From assembly GCA_052168235.1 (NCBI GenBank), contig JBQLZK010000041.1, forward strand, positions 1 through 64,000: 64,000 nt of DNA, in the 5' to 3' direction. Source of the DNA: Thainema sp. (lineage in GTDB: Bacteria; Cyanobacteriota; Cyanobacteriia; Phormidesmidales; Phormidesmidaceae). Position numbers and translations under genes: made by a program. Under the pieces are notes generated by a model. It worked only from the letters and a program-made list of their open reading frames with translations. It searched no databases and had not been told where the DNA came from. Shown in pieces: positions 1,222 to 8,469 of the stretch (position 1 is its first letter; every line of letters begins with the position of its first letter).

Positions 1222-1911
1222 GTGGCTTTGTCTTCCCAACCCGCGATCCAGCGTGGTCAATCGTTATACGAGCAGGTCTATCAGGCATTGCGCAATGCCA
1301 TTTTGACTGGAGAACTAGCAGCGGGTCAGCGACTCGTTGAAACCCAGCTTGCGGAGTGGCTCAGCGTTAGCCGTACTCCTTTACGAGAAGCCTTGCGTCA
1401 GCTTCAGCAAGAGGGTTTGGTATCATCAGAAGCAAATGGTGGATTACGAGTCACGACGCTATCAATTGCCGATGCGATCGAACTATACGACTGCCGGATT
1501 GCGCTGGAGCAGCTAGCTGTGGCAGAAGCTTGTCGTCGAGCTACAGATGAGCAACTGAAACAGCTAGAGATGTACGTTGCCGAGGCGGAACAGTTCGCAG
1601 ATGCCCAGGAAAAACCGTCCAGTTCGTTTCAACTGCTGGAGTTAGACTATCAGTTTCATCATCTTATTGCCCAAAGTTCTGGTAATCAGCGGCTCACTGC
1701 ACTGCTGGAGCAGCTTTTTGATGCGATGGCGCTGTTGCGAATTCAGACGCTCCAGCACAATCCCAACGTGCTGGAAATTCGGCTAGAGCATCGGCAAATT
1801 TACACTGCGATCGCAACTCAGGATGCCGATGCTGCAACCGAGGCTATTGTCTCTCATCTGATTGCGAGTAAGCAGCGAGTGGCGCGCGAAATCAACGATC
1901 TAAGTAAATAA
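1222..1911 (+). CDS. GntR family transcriptional regulator (wHTH + FCD domain)
   Basis: LYEQVYQALRNAILTGEL..GQRLVETQLAEWLSVSRTPLREAL wHTH; FCD motifs DYQFHHLIA..SGN and EHRQIYTAI. GTG start. Confidence 0.92.
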   Translation: MALSSQPAIQRGQSLYEQVYQALRNAILTGELAAGQRLVETQLAEWLSVSRTPLREALRQLQQEGLVSSEANGGLRVTTLSIADAIELYDCRIALEQLAVAEACRRATDEQLKQLEMYVAEAEQFADAQEKPSSSFQLLELDYQFHHLIAQSSGNQRLTALLEQLFDAMALLRIQTLQHNPNVLEIRLEHRQIYTAIATQDADAATEAIVSHLIASKQRVAREINDLSK

Positions 1912-2038
1912 ACCCCCAATCATCACGTTAGGCAGCGGAAATTTTCTGCTTAGGCGCTATCGTTGCTTGCGCTGCGATCGCATCTTCCCAGAGCATGGCT
2001 TAGAGGGGATGTGAGATCGCGCTTTGTTCCTCATACCA

Positions 2039-2280
2039 TCAGTTATCAAGGGGGCTACGTACTCCTCGGTTGATACTTGTTCCTGTACAGCTAAGTGAGT
2101 CAAGAATTCCTCAATTTCTGGAACACCCATCTCCATCGGATGCCGTTTATTGTGGAAAAGGATATAGCGACGAATCCATTGAACGTAAGTTTCTTCAGTG
2201 CGGTAGGAGTAGTGTTTGAGGCGAATGGTGTCACGTACTTGGTCAAGTAGTTTCTTGGGACGAGGCTGAGGTGGCTGCAT
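2039..2280 (-). pseudogene. intI: Integron integrase (IntI) with an internal deletion of the catalytic domain
   Basis: The N-terminus KLLDQVRDTIRLKHYSYRTEETYVQWIRRYILFHNKRHP..IEEFLTHLAV is typical IntI. It is fused out of frame to an IntI-type C-terminus NRGVRSPLDN* (2039..2071). The 1957..2280 ORF tail is a frameshift product. Confidence 0.88.
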
Positions 2281-2360
2281 AGAGTGAATATATGTTGAGG
2301 GATGATAAATAAACTCTAAGCAGCGTGAGCCTGAAGTCGTAGGGGTGGTTATACTGATTT

Positions 2361-2482
2361 TTTCTGCCTAATCACCCAAATCAGGGTGTTAGGCTGACGG
2401 GTTTCTACCTAATCACCCAAATAGGCGTGTTAGGCTGACGAATTTCTGCCTAATCACCCGAATAGGGGTATTAGGCAGAAAG
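2361..2482. repeat. Three tandem ~41-bp palindromic repeats between intI and attI
   Basis: Units start at 2361, 2402 and 2443: TTTCT(G/A)CCTAATCACCC..GT(G/A)TTAGGC. Unit 3 has perfect 12-bp arms TTTCTGCCTAAT/ATTAGGCAGAAA. Confidence 0.88.
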
Positions 2483-2486
2483 TTTC

Positions 2487-2506
2487 ACTCTAATAAATAG
2501 TTAAAT
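2487..2506 (+). mobile_element. Integron attI-like site (predicted crossover G/TT at 2500-2502)
   Basis: ACTCTAATAAATAGTTAAAT resembles the attI1 simple site CCCTAAAACAAAGTTRRRY. It lies upstream of the divergent intI and precedes the first attC. Confidence 0.72.
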
Positions 2507-2675
2507 CGATGGCGGATTCAAAGGTTATTTTATAAGGCAAATATAGCAGTTGTCTGTTAGTGCTTGGGAATCCTAAAAGAGCGATCTCCGCCACGACTTA
2601 ACTACTCGTTGGAGCCGACGAACGCCGTTAGCCCGACGACGCTGACTAAGCGTCGTTCGCGGCTCAACTTCATTG
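2501..2675 (+). mobile_element. Integron cassette 1, ORF-less (~175 bp)
   Basis: Starts at GTTAAAT and ends in attC 2596..2681, whose R'' (ACTTAAC) is complementary to the start with one mismatch. Confidence 0.72.
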
Positions 2676-2681
2676 TTAGAC
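2596..2681 (+). mobile_element. attC site 1 (86 bp)
   Basis: R'' ACTTAAC ... GTTGGAGCCGACGAACG ... CGTTCGCGGCTCAAC ... R' GTTAGAC; imperfect palindrome with the classic attC box layout. Confidence 0.88.
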
Positions 2682-2705
2682 CGCCTCAAGTTATCAGAGA
2701 AGGCG

Positions 2706-2873
2706 ATGGAAAGCCAAGCTACATTAGATAAGAATAATTGCAACCCGGATACCTCTAAAGACGATTGCCGGATAATTAGAGTAGTAGAAATACTTACAGC
2801 ATTTCCCTGTGTGGTGAGGTACAGCCGCTGGCCTCAGGACAAGGGTTTTATGTCGATCCGTGTACCTCACTAG
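2706..2873 (+). CDS. Possible small (55 aa) leader ORF of cassette 2
   Basis: ATG at 2706 preceded by GAGAAGG just after attC1; MESQATLDKNNCNPDTSKDDC...; no recognisable family. Confidence 0.3.
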   Translation: MESQATLDKNNCNPDTSKDDCRIIRVVEILTAFPCVVRYSRWPQDKGFMSIRVPH

Positions 2874-2985
2874 CTTCAGAAACGCTGTATTCAAACAGCC
2901 CAATAAAACTCAACGGTGATTTTGCAGATAATAATTGCTGTTTTGTTGGTCTGCTGCGATTACCTTCTAGCAGAGGTTCTCAGGT

Positions 2986-3864
2986 ATGCCAAGCTCTCCA
3001 TCTACTCTCTTAAAACTTCGCACTGTTCAGTATCTTAAATTGTTAGACCACTTCATTTGTGTCAAAAATAGTTATCTTTTCTGGAAGCATATTGTACCTT
3101 TCACTATCTCTTGCCTCCTACTTCTCCTTCTATCAATTCCTAAAGATAACCTTTTACTAAATTTGAGCAATATATTACAAAAACCTGACTGGATATGGAT
3201 TCCTGCAATTCTACTAACAATAATTAGTATAGGAGTTTACATTGGAACTGTTTATGTCCAAGTGTGTAAATTATATCCATGTTCAAGATATGATATCAGT
3301 AGAACTTTAGGGACTTGTCTCCTTTATTCAATAACTTGCATTCTCATGGCTTATGCAGTATTGCTATCTGCATTAAGTCGTGACATTACGTTCGGAGATC
3401 TTTGGGCTTGTGTCTTGCTTACAGCTTTATCATTAACAGGTATAGGCTGGTCGGGTCCAAACTCATGGGTTGAAACAGTTGGGATTTCTTTCCCAAATTA
3501 TGAACATGGACGAAAATCAATAAAAAAAATCAAGCAGTTCCTAAAGAAGACACAAACTATCCCTACTAGCAAAAAGCAAGACGTACAAGATTTTGTGAAT
3601 ATGCTTGAAGTCTTGCGTGAAGATATTGACAATAATTCACGTCTTGAGCCAGCATGGTTTAGGCGTTATATAATTATAATTATTCGCTCTCTTGATGATT
3701 TAATAGAGCAAACAAAAATCTCTTTTCTGCAAAGCAATAACAGTTTGGCCATAGAGCAATTTGCTCCTGCTTGTAGAAAGGAATTGGCATTTCAATATTC
3801 AAACTTTACTTCTTCACTTGCTAGCTTTCAATCTGTGCTGACCCAAGCGGATACTGAGCTATAA
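2986..3864 (+). CDS. Hypothetical membrane protein (~4 N-terminal TM segments + soluble C-terminal domain), cassette-borne
   Basis: 292-aa ORF with four hydrophobic stretches in the first ~155 aa and a charged C-terminal half. Confidence 0.8.
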   Translation: MPSSPSTLLKLRTVQYLKLLDHFICVKNSYLFWKHIVPFTISCLLLLLLSIPKDNLLLNLSNILQKPDWIWIPAILLTIISIGVYIGTVYVQVCKLYPCSRYDISRTLGTCLLYSITCILMAYAVLLSALSRDITFGDLWACVLLTALSLTGIGWSGPNSWVETVGISFPNYEHGRKSIKKIKQFLKKTQTIPTSKKQDVQDFVNMLEVLREDIDNNSRLEPAWFRRYIIIIIRSLDDLIEQTKISFLQSNNSLAIEQFAPACRKELAFQYSNFTSSLASFQSVLTQADTEL

Positions 3865-3877
3865 AAGGAGGAAAACA

Positions 3878-5170
3878 ATGACTAATTTTGATTTTCATAA
3901 AAGCGACAGTTGCACGCATCTTCTTGCTCTAGCTTATCCCCCTCCAGATGGTAGATCAATTCTTAACTGGGTGCCATTTCAAGGGGGGGATCAGTTGTAT
4001 GAAATTATTGAGACATACAATAAAAAATGTCTCGCTCATTATCTCAATATGGGTTGGATACCCGAAAGTATAGAGGAGCAAGGAGACTGGATTATTGTTG
4101 TTCCACATGACTTGTCTGATATTGATACAGTGAGAAGAGAAGACTTTGCTAAGATCTATTTCTTGTTAATTGGTCTTGATCACGTAGAAGGTCAGGAATC
4201 AGCATTTGAGCGTGTGAAAGCGCGAATGATACCTCATAGACATAAGTATTATATTTCACAGGCTAGTACTAAAGAACAATCTACTTCGTGCCTATCAAAA
4301 TTTTTGTCAGTGCCTTTCTCTCCTTCTAATCCAGCAATTATTTCTCATCAAAAAGACTTTGAGAATTGGTTGGAAAATCTTCACGGAATTTATGCATATG
4401 CTTTAGGAGTCGCCAACTTTTCTCAATCATTACCAAAGACTCAAATATCCTTTAAAGACATTAAAGCGGTGGGAGTACTGCCTAGTACTGTGGATTTTGA
4501 AGGAGGAGAAAGATTTGACTTTGATAACAACATAATTTTGAGAGAAGAATATTTTAAGGCAATCCCAAAAATTTCTCTAAAGATTCGGGACTCTATCATT
4601 GAAAGTGATTTACCTATAGAAGAGATGTCTATAGAAGAGATGTCAGGGACTATCAAGGATCTGGCGTATAGAGAAGTATCCAAGGAACTTTCATCTATTC
4701 AAATCTCTGAATCAATCAGGACTCTTGATAGACCAAATGTTAATACAGAAAAAATTTTTGAACCATCTGAAGAAGCCAGAGCCGCTTTGGCTCAAGTAAC
4801 TAGCAATGTAATAGATGAAGGCAAGATTACACTAACTCCAGAATGGCAGCCTGTTGATTTGGTTGAAGTTTACTTGTCGGGCAGAGTGAAAGAGATGTCT
4901 TTGGGGCAACTAAAACGTGAGATGAATAAAGAACAATTTTCGGCATTGAGAGACTTAGGCATAAAAGGTAAGAGTCATTCAGTATTGTTATGGAATCATC
5001 AAACAACTTGGGATAAGCTCAGTGCTATAGACAACCTAGTGGAAACTCAAGAGAGAATATCTTGTTTGCCAATGAGATCTATTTTAGGTAATTCCAATTT
5101 TTCTTCTTTATCAAGTTCCACCCTCAATTTAGGTAGTTCAAACGACAATTTTGGAGGTATTAAGTTTTAG
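3878..5170 (+). CDS. Hypothetical soluble protein, cassette-borne
   Basis: 430-aa ORF with a strong RBS (AAAGGAGG), starting 13 bp after the previous stop and ending 16 bp before attC2. No motif recognised. Confidence 0.85.
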   Translation: MTNFDFHKSDSCTHLLALAYPPPDGRSILNWVPFQGGDQLYEIIETYNKKCLAHYLNMGWIPESIEEQGDWIIVVPHDLSDIDTVRREDFAKIYFLLIGLDHVEGQESAFERVKARMIPHRHKYYISQASTKEQSTSCLSKFLSVPFSPSNPAIISHQKDFENWLENLHGIYAYALGVANFSQSLPKTQISFKDIKAVGVLPSTVDFEGGERFDFDNNIILREEYFKAIPKISLKIRDSIIESDLPIEEMSIEEMSGTIKDLAYREVSKELSSIQISESIRTLDRPNVNTEKIFEPSEEARAALAQVTSNVIDEGKITLTPEWQPVDLVEVYLSGRVKEMSLGQLKREMNKEQFSALRDLGIKGKSHSVLLWNHQTTWDKLSAIDNLVETQERISCLPMRSILGNSNFSSLSSSTLNLGSSNDNFGGIKF

Positions 5171-5186
5171 ATGAACGTTTAGTGTG

Positions 5187-5274
5187 GTCTAACAAGCCCG
5201 CTGCACCGGAACGAATTTTAGCTATCGTTAAGACGTTAAAGGTTCTCTGCGTCCGGTGAGCGGGGTCGTTATCC
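5187..5274 (+). mobile_element. attC site 2 (88 bp)
   Basis: R'' GTCTAAC, CCCGCTGCACCGGA ... TCCGGTGAGCGGG, R' GTTATCC. Confidence 0.85.
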
Positions 5275-5389
5275 CAAAGCACAGTGAAGCCGCGCTAGAA
5301 TGGGCGGAAATGTTGTCCAAGCCAATACTCCTCAACTGAGCGCATCGTTGACTCCGGTTTCGGGTGGCTCCCCTCGATAAAGAAATGAC

Positions 5390-5719
5390 ATGGAAAAGCC
5401 AGCCAAAAACACGATTTGCCTTTGGTACGATGGCATTAAGCACAACGAAGCATTCTCATTTCAGGTTGCAACCGTTGACCAAGCTGAAACAGATCGCTAC
5501 TGGAACGCGATTGTCGGCAACGGCGGCTAGGAGAGCGCCTGCGGCTGGTGTAAAGATAAATGGGGAGTGTCCTGGCAGATTACGCCGATTACCCTGACGA
5601 ACGCGATCGCAGATCCCGATCCCGCTGTTGCTAAGCGGGCGTTCGATGCAATGATGCAGATGAGAAAAATCGACATCGCTGCAATCGAGGCGGCGTGCCG
5701 CTTGAATGAGCATATTTAG
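5390..5719 (+). pseudogene. PhnB-like VOC (3-demethylubiquinone-9 3-methyltransferase-like) pseudogene
   Basis: MEKPAKNTICLWYDG|IKHNEAFSFQVATVDQAETDRYWNAIVGNGG*ESACGWCKDKWGVSWQITP...AKRAFDAMMQMRKIDIAAIEAA. The internal segment after WYDG appears to be missing and there is a TAG at 5528-5530. Confidence 0.8.
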
Positions 5720-5727
5720 GATGAGAA

Positions 5728-8469
5728 CTAGGTGTTCAAAGTTCTCTTTCTCTCGTGTCGCTGGTTCCGGCGGTTCTTCAAGCTTTCGACAATCTGACCG
5801 ATGATCAGCGGCACAAGACTGGTGCCCAGAATTAACAGCCAGCCGTTGACGCCAATAGCGACGGTTTGGAGGGCATCCGATAGTCCTGGCACGTAGACTG
5901 CAATCACTAGCAGAACCGTACAGAAGGCAAGTGCGCCCCAAACGTATTTATTCTGAGTGATTTCATTGCGGAATATACCCGTACCGGGTTCTCGCATATT
6001 AAACACGTGCCAGAGTCGCGTGAAGCCCAGAGAAATAAATGAAATGGTGGTCGCGGCTTCTTCGTCTAGTCCCAGCCACTGTCGCGCCAGCACGAATGAA
6101 CCTAAGATAGTGCCTGCAATGATTGCGCCATAGCCGACAATCCGAATCCAGTGCCGTCGCGCCAAAACCGACTCTTTGCGGCGACGAGGGGGCTGCTGCA
6201 TCAGTTGAGGCGTTCCTTCGCCGACCCCCAGCGCCAGGGCGGGAAAGGCATCGTTGACGACGTTGATATAGAGAATTTGAAGCGGTAGCAAGGGCAGCGG
6301 CGCATTGAGAATAGAGGCCAGACCCACGGCAATAATTTCGCCCAAATTACCGGACAGCAGATAGATAGTGAACTTACGAATATTGGTAAAAATAGCGCGA
6401 CCCTGCTCCACTGCCGCCACAATTGACGAAAAGGAATCGTCTTGCAGCACCATATCTGCCGCTTCTTTGGCAACTTCAGTACCCCGTTGCCCCATCGCGA
6501 TCCCAATATCGGCTTTTTTCAGTGCAGGCGCATCGTTCACGCCATCACCCGTCATTGCCACGACAGAACTATTTTGCTGATGCACCGCAATTAAATTCAG
6601 TTTGTCTTCTGGATTAACCCGCGCAAAAATCGGTGTTTCAATCAAACGCTGGCGCTGATCCGCAGGTAGCTGGTCAGCATTTTTCAGATCTTTACCCTGT
6701 AGCGCTTGAGTTGTGTTGTCTTCGACCAAACCAACGGCAACTCCAATGTTGCGAGCCGTGACCGCCTGATCTCCGGTCACCATAATCACACGGATGCCCG
6801 CATCTTGGCACTCCTGAATGGCATCGCGCACGGTTTGGCGCGGTGGATCAAGCAGTCCCACAACGCCTAAGAGCGTTAGATCTTGGTATGGATCGGCATC
6901 GGCTTGATTCGTCACTTTCTGGGCCAGTCCTAGAACCCGTAGTCCCTGAGCGGCAAGCTGATTCGCGCGATCGCGCCATTCCTGGCGCATAGCACTGGTC
7001 ATTTCGCGCAGGTCTGATTCGGTTCGCAGCGTAGTACAAGCTTCCAAAACCGCCTCTGGTGCGCCTTTCACCGCATAACGATAGGACTTATCTGCTGCTG
7101 AAGTATTGTGATGAACCGTCGCCATCATTTTAGTGTCTGGATCAAATGCCTCTTCCCGCACTTCCGGCGACTGCTCAAGCAGCGTATCCCTTGTGATATC
7201 GGCTTTTTTGCCCGCAATCAACAGGGCGACTTCCATCGGATCGCCAACTACGCGGCTCTCGTTTGAGCTTTCGGGTTGAAGAGCCGCATTATTGCACAGT
7301 ACACCCACTTCCAGCGCATCCCGCAGTATTGCGTGTTCCTGGGGCTGGATTTGCTGATTGTCCTGCTTAAATTCTCCTTTTGGCTCTAAACCTTCGCCAG
7401 TAATTTCAATCTGGCCTGCGGCGAGGGCTATTCGCGCCACCGTCATTTGGTTTTCGGTCAGCGTCCCCGTTTTATCGGTACAAATGACGCTGGTGGAGCC
7501 GAGAGTTTCAACCGCTGAGAGCTGGTTGATCAGGGCATTACGCTTGGCCATCCGCCACATGCCTCGCGCTAAGGCTACTGTCGCCACAATCGGTAAGCCC
7601 TCTGGCACTGCCGCCACCGAAAGCGCGATCGCAATTTCCACCATCAGCCGCAGTTCTCGACCCGCGATGATGCCCGCAACGGCGACGAGTGCCGCTACTG
7701 CAATCGTGATCCAGACCAGTTGGCGACCCAGCTTATCCAGTCGCTTTTCCAGCGGCGTTTGCTGCTCCATGCCTGCTTGTTCAGCTAGAGCAGAAATGTT
7801 GCCCAGCTCGGTTTCCATACCTGTGGCAACTACTACGCCCGCACCACTGCCGCGCGTTAGAGCTGTGCCTTTATAGAGCATGTTTTTGCGATCGGCTAAG
7901 GGCACTTCGTCTGCTTCGAGCGGGTCTAATGTCTTGCCCACGGGCACCGATTCACCTGTCAGTGACGACTCATTGACCTGCATTCTGGAGGCTTCCACCA
8001 CCCGCAGGTCGGCTCCAATCACGTCACCGCTGTCGAGGATGACAATATCGCCCGGAACGAGTTCTTCAACTGGAATTTCTTGGATTTTGCCGTTGCGACG
8101 CACCGCAACGCTAGGACTGCTCAGCTTTTGCAGCGACTGCATGGATTGGACGGCTCGATATTCTGAGAAGAAGCCGATGATGGTGTTAACTGCGATCGCA
8201 ATTAATACCGCAATTCCTTCGATCCATTGACCAAAGCTAAACGATAAAACCGCTGCAACGGCCAGAATCGCAATGATCAAGCTTTTGAACTGATCAATAA
8301 AAATCGACCAAGCGCTGCGCTGTTCGGCTTGCTCTAGCTGGTTTTTGCCAAACTGATTGAGGCGTTGCTGAGCGTCGGATTCTGATAAACCGTTGTCAAC
8401 ATCAACAGCAAGTTGTTTGAGAACTTGATCAACGGATTGCGTCCAAGGTCGATCGGGAGTCTGAACCAT
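5728..8469 (-). CDS. Cation-transporting P-type ATPase (P2A, Ca2+-type)
   Basis: TGES, PEGL, DKTGT, KGAPE, TGDGVNDAPAL motifs. Confidence 0.95.
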   Translation of the reverse strand: MVQTPDRPWTQSVDQVLKQLAVDVDNGLSESDAQQRLNQFGKNQLEQAEQRSAWSIFIDQFKSLIIAILAVAAVLSFSFGQWIEGIAVLIAIAVNTIIGFFSEYRAVQSMQSLQKLSSPSVAVRRNGKIQEIPVEELVPGDIVILDSGDVIGADLRVVEASRMQVNESSLTGESVPVGKTLDPLEADEVPLADRKNMLYKGTALTRGSGAGVVVATGMETELGNISALAEQAGMEQQTPLEKRLDKLGRQLVWITIAVAALVAVAGIIAGRELRLMVEIAIALSVAAVPEGLPIVATVALARGMWRMAKRNALINQLSAVETLGSTSVICTDKTGTLTENQMTVARIALAAGQIEITGEGLEPKGEFKQDNQQIQPQEHAILRDALEVGVLCNNAALQPESSNESRVVGDPMEVALLIAGKKADITRDTLLEQSPEVREEAFDPDTKMMATVHHNTSAADKSYRYAVKGAPEAVLEACTTLRTESDLREMTSAMRQEWRDRANQLAAQGLRVLGLAQKVTNQADADPYQDLTLLGVVGLLDPPRQTVRDAIQECQDAGIRVIMVTGDQAVTARNIGVAVGLVEDNTTQALQGKDLKNADQLPADQRQRLIETPIFARVNPEDKLNLIAVHQQNSSVVAMTGDGVNDAPALKKADIGIAMGQRGTEVAKEAADMVLQDDSFSSIVAAVEQGRAIFTNIRKFTIYLLSGNLGEIIAVGLASILNAPLPLLPLQILYINVVNDAFPALALGVGEGTPQLMQQPPRRRKESVLARRHWIRIVGYGAIIAGTILGSFVLARQWLGLDEEAATTISFISLGFTRLWHVFNMREPGTGIFRNEITQNKYVWGALAFCTVLLVIAVYVPGLSDALQTVAIGVNGWLLILGTSLVPLIIGQIVESLKNRRNQRHERKRTLNT

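Follow-up and report, generated by a model that had tools for sequence, protein, structure and literature searches.

To our knowledge, integron cassettes are now viewed as stores of compact defence systems, and nearly all of the evidence for this comes from Vibrio and other Proteobacteria. The available excerpts of one preprint report that integron cassettes hold small defence systems, that two-gene systems of a sensor and a membrane pore (Sucellos, RexAB-like) sit in such cassettes, and that Sucellos (SclAB), a RexAB-like system in an integron cassette of Vibrio cholerae, needs both of its genes (preprint 10.1101/2024.07.02.601686). Here we examine a 64,000-nucleotide stretch of DNA from the cyanobacterium Thainema sp. 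(the window; bases 1-64000 of contig C41), in which positions 2676-5268 of the plus strand form a 2593-bp gene cassette with two open reading frames (ORFs), ORF1 for a membrane protein and ORF2 for a soluble one. The locus adds to the known cassettes a clean, experimentally tractable 2.6-kb two-gene unit from a cyanobacterium.

The two genes are conserved as a pair in distant lineages, and the end of the ORF2 protein is homologous to ribosomal protein uL30. We compare the pair with described defence systems and weigh a tentative function in cellular conflict against other explanations. The host assembly measures 7.54 Mb, contains 8963 HIP1 octamers and is 99.99% complete. C-numbers denote contigs of this genome (G000), G001 and G004 are related genomes, of which G001 belongs to the same genus as the host, and L- and P-numbers denote loci and protein relatives, respectively, in this analysis.

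A gene cassette between two attC sites

The first-pass annotation had placed a cassette between GTTAGAC at 2675 and an attC whose R'' box, GTCTAAC, is its exact complement. Both are present, the former as the junction G2675/TTAGAC (the slash marks the break) and the latter at 5187-5193. By themselves the two 7-mers are not significant, since GTTAGAC occurs seven times and GTCTAAC three times in the window and about four occurrences per strand are expected. Whichever strand is folded, 5180-5280 gives an imperfect hairpin (z -3.3 for the top strand; z -3.1 and -18.1 kcal/mol for the bottom strand) that none of 200 shuffles equalled. A scan of the genome by motif and fold gave eight attC candidates, four of which are alike and have an internal AAAGGTT (C41 5187-5272, two on C80 and one on C4). 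These four sites align to one 24-pair hairpin, with compensatory changes at 10 of the pairs and one unpaired base in the 5' arm, and a covariance model built from them (R1) gave 18 matches at E<=0.01 on 12 host contigs. Within the window R1 finds exactly two sites, both on the plus strand: 5187-5274, which was used in training, and 2596-2681, which was not, and which is matched at full length (model positions 1-87; 29.6 bits, E 1.2e-5). Because R1 finds these two sites, 2676-5268 is placed between two attC of one genome-wide family and belongs, as a gene cassette, to a chromosomal integron that has decayed.

Fold, compensatory pairs, covariance model and a paralogous junction on C80 all confirm the cassette, and its edges lie where they had first been drawn. 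The left edge changes in identity: GTTAGAC (2675-2681) is the R' box of the attC of a preceding cassette and not the attI itself. This preceding unit, cassette 0 (2501-2675, plus strand), is 175 bp long, lacks an ORF, is common to C41 and C80, and is flanked by an attI-like core and by its own attC (2596-2681, plus strand, with R'' ACTTAAC). Window positions 2266-2688 are 95% identical to C80, with 100% identity over the 97 nt ending at GTTAGAC; beyond that point C80 carries another cassette. The focal cassette obeys the rule by which R'' complements a G followed by the cassette's own first six bases, and so do the two cassettes on C80 and the one on C4. The start of the C4 cassette abuts the attI-like core, which fixes the orientation. 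The consensus of attC cores is RYYYAAC for R'' and GTTRRRY for R'. In the attC of the focal cassette (5187-5274, plus strand), R'' GTCTAAC fits this consensus and R' GTTATCC (5268-5274) fits just at GTT and the following A; the bases past G/TT belong to the following DNA.

That the pairing of GTTAGAC with GTCTAAC is fortuitous, and that the island came by another way and is no cassette, might be argued from the frequency of the 7-mers in the window and from the deviation of GTTATCC from GTTRRRY. Set against the covariance-model matches, the compensatory pairs, the paralogous C80 junction and the chained R''/R' complementarity in three arrays, this explanation is highly improbable. The composition of the cassette is foreign, at 37.8% GC compared with 47.2% for the window and 50.0% for the genome, and the unit has been acquired horizontally.

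A second GTTAGAC lies inside ORF1 at 3042, where 15 of 17 bases (3039-3055) are the same as at the junction (2672-2688), and might be a possible secondary recombination site. It was rejected as a cassette edge on the grounds that P0007, P0135, P0005 and P0006 share the codons preceding it and that, by a rough estimate, about 0.6 chance matches are expected per 4.1 kb; we judge it to reflect chance or coding constraint.

The cassette begins with an apparently non-coding leader of 310 nt (2676-2985, plus strand, 43.9% GC). A 55-aa ORF within it (2706-2873) has no homologue and, in a longer 66-aa form, no Pfam match; the fold of the leader RNA is unremarkable (z -0.38), and a promoter and terminator scan gave 10 promoter-like sites compared with 8.1 +/- 3.1 in shuffles, none of them in the leader on the plus strand. 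ORF1 (2986-3864, plus strand; 292 aa, 35.6% GC) and ORF2 (3878-5170, plus strand; 430 aa, 36.8% GC) are separated by 13 nt, within which GGAGG (3867-3871) forms the ribosome-binding site of ORF2, 6 nt before its ATG. The original description of two tightly coupled AT-rich ORFs, the first with about four transmembrane (TM) helices and the second with a strong ribosome-binding site, is thereby sustained. Public annotation starts ORF1 at Met121 (P0133, 172 aa), losing three of the four membrane helices (window 2986-3345). The full 292-aa form is supported because an identical protein, P0135, is found in another assembly and because homologues align from about residue 20.

Directly past the cassette lies a decayed PhnB/VOC-like gene (5390-5719, plus strand), which contains an in-frame TAG ending at 5530 and has lost about 50 residues internally. 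A 46-aa piece of it matches Pfam 3-dmu-9_3-mt (E 1e-8, profile positions 67-97). R1 finds no attC between this remnant and the P-type ATPase gene (5728-8469, minus strand), and Rfam gave no match at E<=1 over 1800-6000.

The conserved gene pair and its two proteins

ORF1 and ORF2 are one conserved two-gene unit across distant lineages. Scans with an ORF1 alignment located 15 loci, ten from metagenomes and five from species genomes, the latter being metagenome-assembled genomes (MAGs) labelled uncultured bacterium, WOR-3, Acidobacteria, Methanobacteriota and Nitrospirota. In all 13 loci with enough downstream DNA, the next same-strand ORF after ORF1 is an ORF2 homologue, at gaps of -17 to +20 nt. 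Two loci that end too early, L009 and L015, were left out of this count, and with near-duplicates allowed for (L010/L011/L013/L014 and L007/L008) the 13 amount, by reading of the sequences, to about nine independent lineages. Homologues thus stay paired, a point that the first-pass annotation had put forward for checking, and its proposal of one mobile functional unit gains support from this adjacency together with the position between two attC, the foreign composition and a patchy distribution.

The pair constitutes a rare, unannotated family (about 113 representatives in 1.84 billion proteins) that spreads over MAGs labelled WOR-3, Acidobacteria, Nitrospirota, Methanobacteriota and others. 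That count comes from an ORF2 profile of 14 relatives at E<=0.001, and falls to 94 at 1e-10 and 67 at 1e-30; the proteins are mostly 330-400 aa long, and none of the strong matches among the 113 exceeds 446 aa. A collection of 5.8 billion clusters holds 11 homologues of ORF1 (39-96% identity), the window's own ORF1 not being one of these, and four matches to ORF2, namely itself, two at 72-73% identity and one at 28%. The pair was found in none of 60 relatives and in none of 400 further sampled genomes of the phylum.

The C-terminal domain of ORF2 (4844-5086, plus strand; residues ~323-403) is robustly homologous to uL30 over the whole domain, with the same predicted fold. A 14-sequence ORF2 profile matches uL30 chains in the PDB at E 1e-4. 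A profile of 63 sequences (hmmsearch) reaches uL30 at E 1.9e-6, covering residues 3-57 of the 58-residue Staphylococcus aureus protein, and 34 of its 35 PDB matches at E<=1 are uL30. Alignment by hhalign to three real uL30, from the host genomes of L001-L003, gives a probability of 89.6% and E 1.9e-6 over 61 columns. Foldseek places the template-free model of ORF2 at a target-normalised TM of 0.78-0.82 and an rmsd of 2.1-2.3 A to many bacterial uL30. Of all Pfam families, PF00327 alone finds more than a single relative in the set of 63 (4/63, best E 0.0017, below the cut-off). The window's ORF2 itself gives no PF00327 match, scoring below the gathering threshold, and a PF00327 search of the genome misses it.

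Some 60-80 residues of the domain align over the full length of uL30 (PF00327), and the LGL+K-type motif is retained. The two differ in setting, uL30 being a free protein of about 60 aa from a ribosomal operon and the ORF2 domain being the end of a 430-aa protein carried by a cassette. The ORF2 domain also has a 9-residue insertion and, with 11 K/R to 10 D/E, is not basic. The host genome contains no uL30 gene by PF00327, nor does the control Synechococcus elongatus, and a canonical uL30 is present in four of the five other genomes that host the pair. The domain in ORF2 is the only uL30-like sequence in the host genome. In the literature on uL30/L30-like domains and phage defence, as represented by a thin sample of titles and opening lines of abstracts, no extraribosomal uL30 domain was found. 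In ORF2 a ribosomal protein fold has been put to use at the C-terminus of a protein that is not ribosomal, and in an organism with no uL30 of its own; this ties a mobile two-gene module to the ribosome or RNA in a way that can be tested.

The AF2 model of ORF2 (pLDDT 79.3, pTM 0.77) has three parts. The N-domain (3878-4417, plus strand; residues ~1-180) has a receiver/flavodoxin-like alpha/beta fold with a DWxPF motif and is predicted to be a five-stranded parallel alpha/beta sandwich. Its best VIA match is the receiver domain of VpsT (Z 9.8, rmsd 2.8, 120 aligned), with the next at Z 7.9 and below; these include many receiver and flavodoxin rows at Z 6.4-7.9 and the plant TIR of RPS4 at Z 7.8, where Z 7-8 is the stated background level of the tool. 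The residues conserved in at least 90% of the 63 relatives are L16, W31, P33, F34, N48, F142, L165, R237, E270, L397 and P398. None is an Asp or Glu of the N-domain, and D78 is invariant solely in the 14-sequence set. Since the N-domain holds no acidic residue conserved at that level, it is neither a working receiver nor a TIR NADase; ORF2 and its relatives likewise match neither Response_reg nor TIR in Pfam, nor any TIR in PADLOC. The middle of the protein is a helical hairpin (residues ~219-307) that carries R237 and E270. The C-terminus is modular within the family. Some relatives retain the N-terminal two thirds and carry another end, a Gly/Arg-rich tail in P0068, P0085 and P0094 and B12-binding domains in P0102. 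In ORF2, 15 nt are exactly duplicated in tandem (4614-4643), which yields IEEMS IEEMS in a poorly conserved loop that is missing in distant relatives.

The AF2 model of ORF1 (pLDDT 86.2, pTM 0.80) consists of an N-terminal helix and four long hydrophobic helices, at residues of about 27-49, 71-96, 103-129 and 136-150, followed by a bundle of four helices (residues ~173-287). In the hydropathy profile three segments are strong and a fourth is weaker, and the charge distribution is compatible with both termini lying in the cytoplasm. A highly conserved motif, LSLTGIGWSGPxSWV, stands between TM4 and the bundle. Structure searches with ORF1 returned generic four-helix bundles alone, the best reaching E 0.037 in Foldseek and, for designed bundles, Z 9.5 in VIA, and no fold was assigned.

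ORF1 contains a run of eight A (A8; window 3523-3530), and a 96%-identical relative is split exactly there into P0007 (185 aa) and P0134 (87 aa) on one 28-kb contig; ORF1 of L005 is also broken in two. The broken copies would fit a costly effector, and slippage-prone inactivation or sequencing or assembly error may also account for them. P0116, encoded on a 410-kb contig, passes from the second half of ORF1 to the N-part of ORF2; it was considered as a fusion of the two and rejected, since similarity is then lost and it is probably a decayed copy.

Neither ORF scores above noise in Pfam, NCBIfam, PHROGs or PADLOC (E of at least 0.05 in NCBIfam and PHROGs), which upholds the initial statement that the proteins match no recognised family, apart from the sub-threshold Ribosomal_L30 in 4 of 63 relatives. 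A VapB match at E 0.14 is noise, and DUF6960 was dropped because it occurs in one of 63 relatives at E 0.03 and 15 bits, against a cut-off of 27. A PADLOC scan of the window's own ORF1 gave no match, and a search of the ESM Atlas with ORF2 gave no usable match. The structure and profile searches that had been suggested at the outset thus returned generic bundles for ORF1 and, for the end of ORF2, the uL30-like domain that had been missed.

The integrase remnant, its platform and the sister cassettes

Upstream of the cassettes lies a stump of intI (1957-2280, minus strand), a 107-aa ORF that is IntI-like only over its first ~62-70 residues; the end of a GntR/FCD regulator gene lies nearby at 1911. 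The stump matches Pfam Phage_int_SAM_4 (E 3e-21, residues 11-71, the N-terminal SAM-like domain) and positions 1-62 of the 315 in TIGR02249 (69.6 bits, cut-off 265). TIGR02249 has no further match in the host genome, so that a functional intI beside attI is lacking.

Between intI and the first cassette a 41-nt hairpin unit is repeated three times in tandem (2361-2483), its arms (GCCTAAT ... GTTAGGC) resembling integron cores. The units are direct repeats, 85% and 80% identical to the reference copy, with a fold z of -6.3, and belong to a repeated platform that recurs on C80, C71, C1 and further contigs and in related genomes. After the units comes the string ...AATAGTTAAAT, with its G at 2500, and comparison of the platform copies on C41, C80, C71, C1 and C4 defines an attI-like core AATAG/TTAAAT (2494-2506, plus strand; G2500). 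The copies of repeats and string on C80, C71, C1 and C4 all end ...AATAGTTA and part company beyond, continuing with TTAGAC on C1, TTAGGC on C4, TTATGC on C71 and TTAAAT on C41 and C80. An attI core cut at G/TT would be expected to diverge in this way, right after the common ...AATAGTTA; the cut position is that of the canonical integron model.

The platform (window 2266-2506) has five host copies with repeats and core and weaker partial matches on C36, C125, C60 and C56, and further copies are held by G001 and G004. In the full copies that were read, the first cassette differs in each, except for the ORF-less cassette 0 common to C41 and C80. The multi-copy attI-like platform, with its three 41-nt hairpin repeats and ...AATAG/TTA, thus coexists with the lack of an intact integrase in the host. 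In G001 the intI-stump platform lies elsewhere than beside the ATPase gene, which there has a different neighbour. There (L021; contig C87, 338-1343) it continues into a different cassette with a 307-aa ORF and an attC of its own (48.6 bits); the 307-aa ORF has no match in Pfam or PADLOC.

The attC family of the host is scattered without intI as small arrays, its 18 sites on 12 contigs including three on C58, two on C43 and three on C1. A host with 18 attC and several attI-like platforms and no integrase bears on how arrays persist and spread after intI is lost. A sister cassette on C80 (L028; 3503-4911, minus strand) encodes a 290-aa TIR_2+Mrr_cat fusion, matched by PADLOC PDC-S66 at E 1.5e-14, and a 179-aa PDC-M36A-like protein, and is likely a defence cassette. 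In the sister array on C1 (L029; 373-2542) the first cassette carries a 401-aa HNH protein with a PDC-M36A-like C-part, and the second a PIN-domain gene with a small upstream ORF. Defence-type genes are found in two of the three first cassettes scanned at other platform copies (C80 and C1); the ORFs on C36, the third, gave just GFA.

Possible functions and relation to described systems

By analogy with described systems, we tentatively put first the reading that the pair is a self-contained module of sensor and membrane effector in cellular conflict, of the abortive-infection type and working like RexA/RexB or Sucellos; a role in phage defence is plausible. ORF2 would be the cytoplasmic sensor or adaptor, and its constant N-domain would dock on the cytoplasmic helical bundle of ORF1, for which the docking of receiver domains on four-helix HPt bundles provides a structural analogy alone. 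The exchangeable C-module, uL30-like here and Gly/Arg-rich or B12-binding in relatives, would read a signal linked to RNA or to the ribosome. Once triggered, ORF1 would perturb the membrane and the cell would halt. Predictions of the ORF1-ORF2 complex from two alignments scored 0.00 and 0.30, compared with a mark of 0.32, and these scores speak neither for nor against the docking. The sister TIR-Mrr and HNH cassettes on the same platform and the precedent of defence systems in integron cassettes are circumstantial hints of defence.

Several results weigh against the reading as a sensor and membrane-effector module. Homology to RexA/RexB is lacking, as neither ORF has a Pfam or PADLOC match of that kind; that no RexA chain is among the structure matches listed for ORF2 carries no weight. 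In PADLOC-DB 2.0 the matches of the ORF2 family stay at noise level: two of its 14 sequences hit pAgo (E 0.005, 13 bits) and one hits AbiEi (E 0.017). No catalogued system is matched above noise, and the suggestion of a new phage-defence module is neither shown nor excluded. The pair is absent from searches of phages (tblastn with ORF2), plasmids (tblastn with ORF1 and ORF2) and viral contigs (pattern scan), and the viral structures of BFVD give no match at E<=0.001. Beside the pair in the 15 foreign loci (L001-L015) there is no attC of the R1 family, a weak negative since the model is lineage-specific, and a crude attC scan beside the foreign pairs found none either. Nor do homologous pairs sit consistently in defence islands. 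Toxin-antitoxin or mobile-element genes adjoin two of the six long loci, namely HEPN/MNT and PIN genes at L001 and TrwC relaxase and IS21 at L003; the neighbours in the other four (L005, L007, L008 and L013) are metabolic or unknown. Finally, the C-domain is not basic and is missing a Ser and a Gly that all three real uL30 share, so that it is at most a putative binder of RNA or the ribosome.

A more specific form of the defence reading, in which ORF2 is a membrane-tethered guard whose uL30 look-alike docks at the uL30 site of the large subunit or on its rRNA partner and reports phage-induced changes in translation to the membrane effector, is a long shot. If true, it would represent a defence system whose sensor mimics a ribosomal protein, acting at a uL30 site that is naturally empty in cyanobacteria, and ORF2 would be the first extraribosomal uL30-domain protein to be described.

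The same domain can be read with no reference to defence. ORF1 might anchor ORF2 in a translation-linked membrane module, the uL30-like domain docking the 50S, the pre-50S or another structured RNA so as to hibernate under stress, to localise translation or to control the quality of ribosomes. The uL30 site of the host's 50S would be empty, as the genome contains no uL30 gene; together with the robust uL30 homology, the absence of any conserved toxin-like or enzymatic motif and the ordinary surroundings of four of the six long loci, this makes such a module the strongest of the competing explanations, if still a rather unlikely one. An empty site is not general, however, since canonical uL30 occurs in four of the five other host genomes. 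Relatives moreover swap the uL30-like domain for unrelated tails, and the very patchy distribution and the integron cassette fit accessory or selfish cargo better.

The two genes could also form an addiction pair resembling toxin-antitoxin systems, with ORF1 as a membrane toxin and ORF2 as its protein antidote, that stabilises itself and the array. Cassette arrays often hold toxin-antitoxin pairs, and the tight coupling and constant adjacency of the two genes, the PIN gene in the second cassette on C1 and the broken ORF1 of some relatives would all be in keeping with this. Yet both proteins are far larger than those of typical type II pairs, neither matches a toxin or antitoxin family, and an antidote would not need a modular build of three domains with swappable C-termini; we regard the addiction pair as unlikely. 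It is slightly less probable still that the cassette is functionless cargo, stranded in a dead integron and heading for decay. Signs of decay do surround it, with intI a stump and no full copy in the genome, a pseudogene as the next gene, no promoter signal that stands out, and, within ORF1, the A8 run that coincides with the break in a 96%-identical relative. Both ORFs are nevertheless intact over 292 and 430 codons, a 100%-identical ORF1 (P0135) occurs in another assembly, and lineages in which identity has fallen to 28-45% still keep the pair, a point in favour of selection. Should the defence reading fail, the uL30-like domain and the strict pairing would still need explaining.

Considered as a cassette, the locus is of a familiar and ordinary sort. 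Its surroundings are decayed, with intI cut down to a stump, and resemble clusters of attC lacking integron-integrases (CALIN). It shares with CALIN and with sedentary chromosomal integrons the attC-bounded arrays, the similarity among attC, the lack of a functional intI and the nearby intI pseudogene, a feature noted in the part consulted of one survey for 15 of 279 CALIN (Cury et al. 2016, PMC4889954). Unlike CALIN, the host has an attI-like platform with three 41-nt hairpin repeats that is itself present in multiple copies.

No described family accommodates the gene pair, which falls outside RexAB, TIR, receiver and PADLOC membership, and a receiver-like plus uL30-like build such as that of ORF2 is not described for any defence system in the portions of the literature examined. 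The resemblance to Sucellos and RexAB is one of layout: two tightly linked genes, always together, one for a small membrane protein of several helices and the other for a soluble protein that lacks enzymatic motifs, and, as far as the excerpts on Sucellos go, both genes in one integron cassette. The pair differs from them in that the membrane gene comes first and in that ORF1 has an extra cytoplasmic helical bundle of 130 aa.

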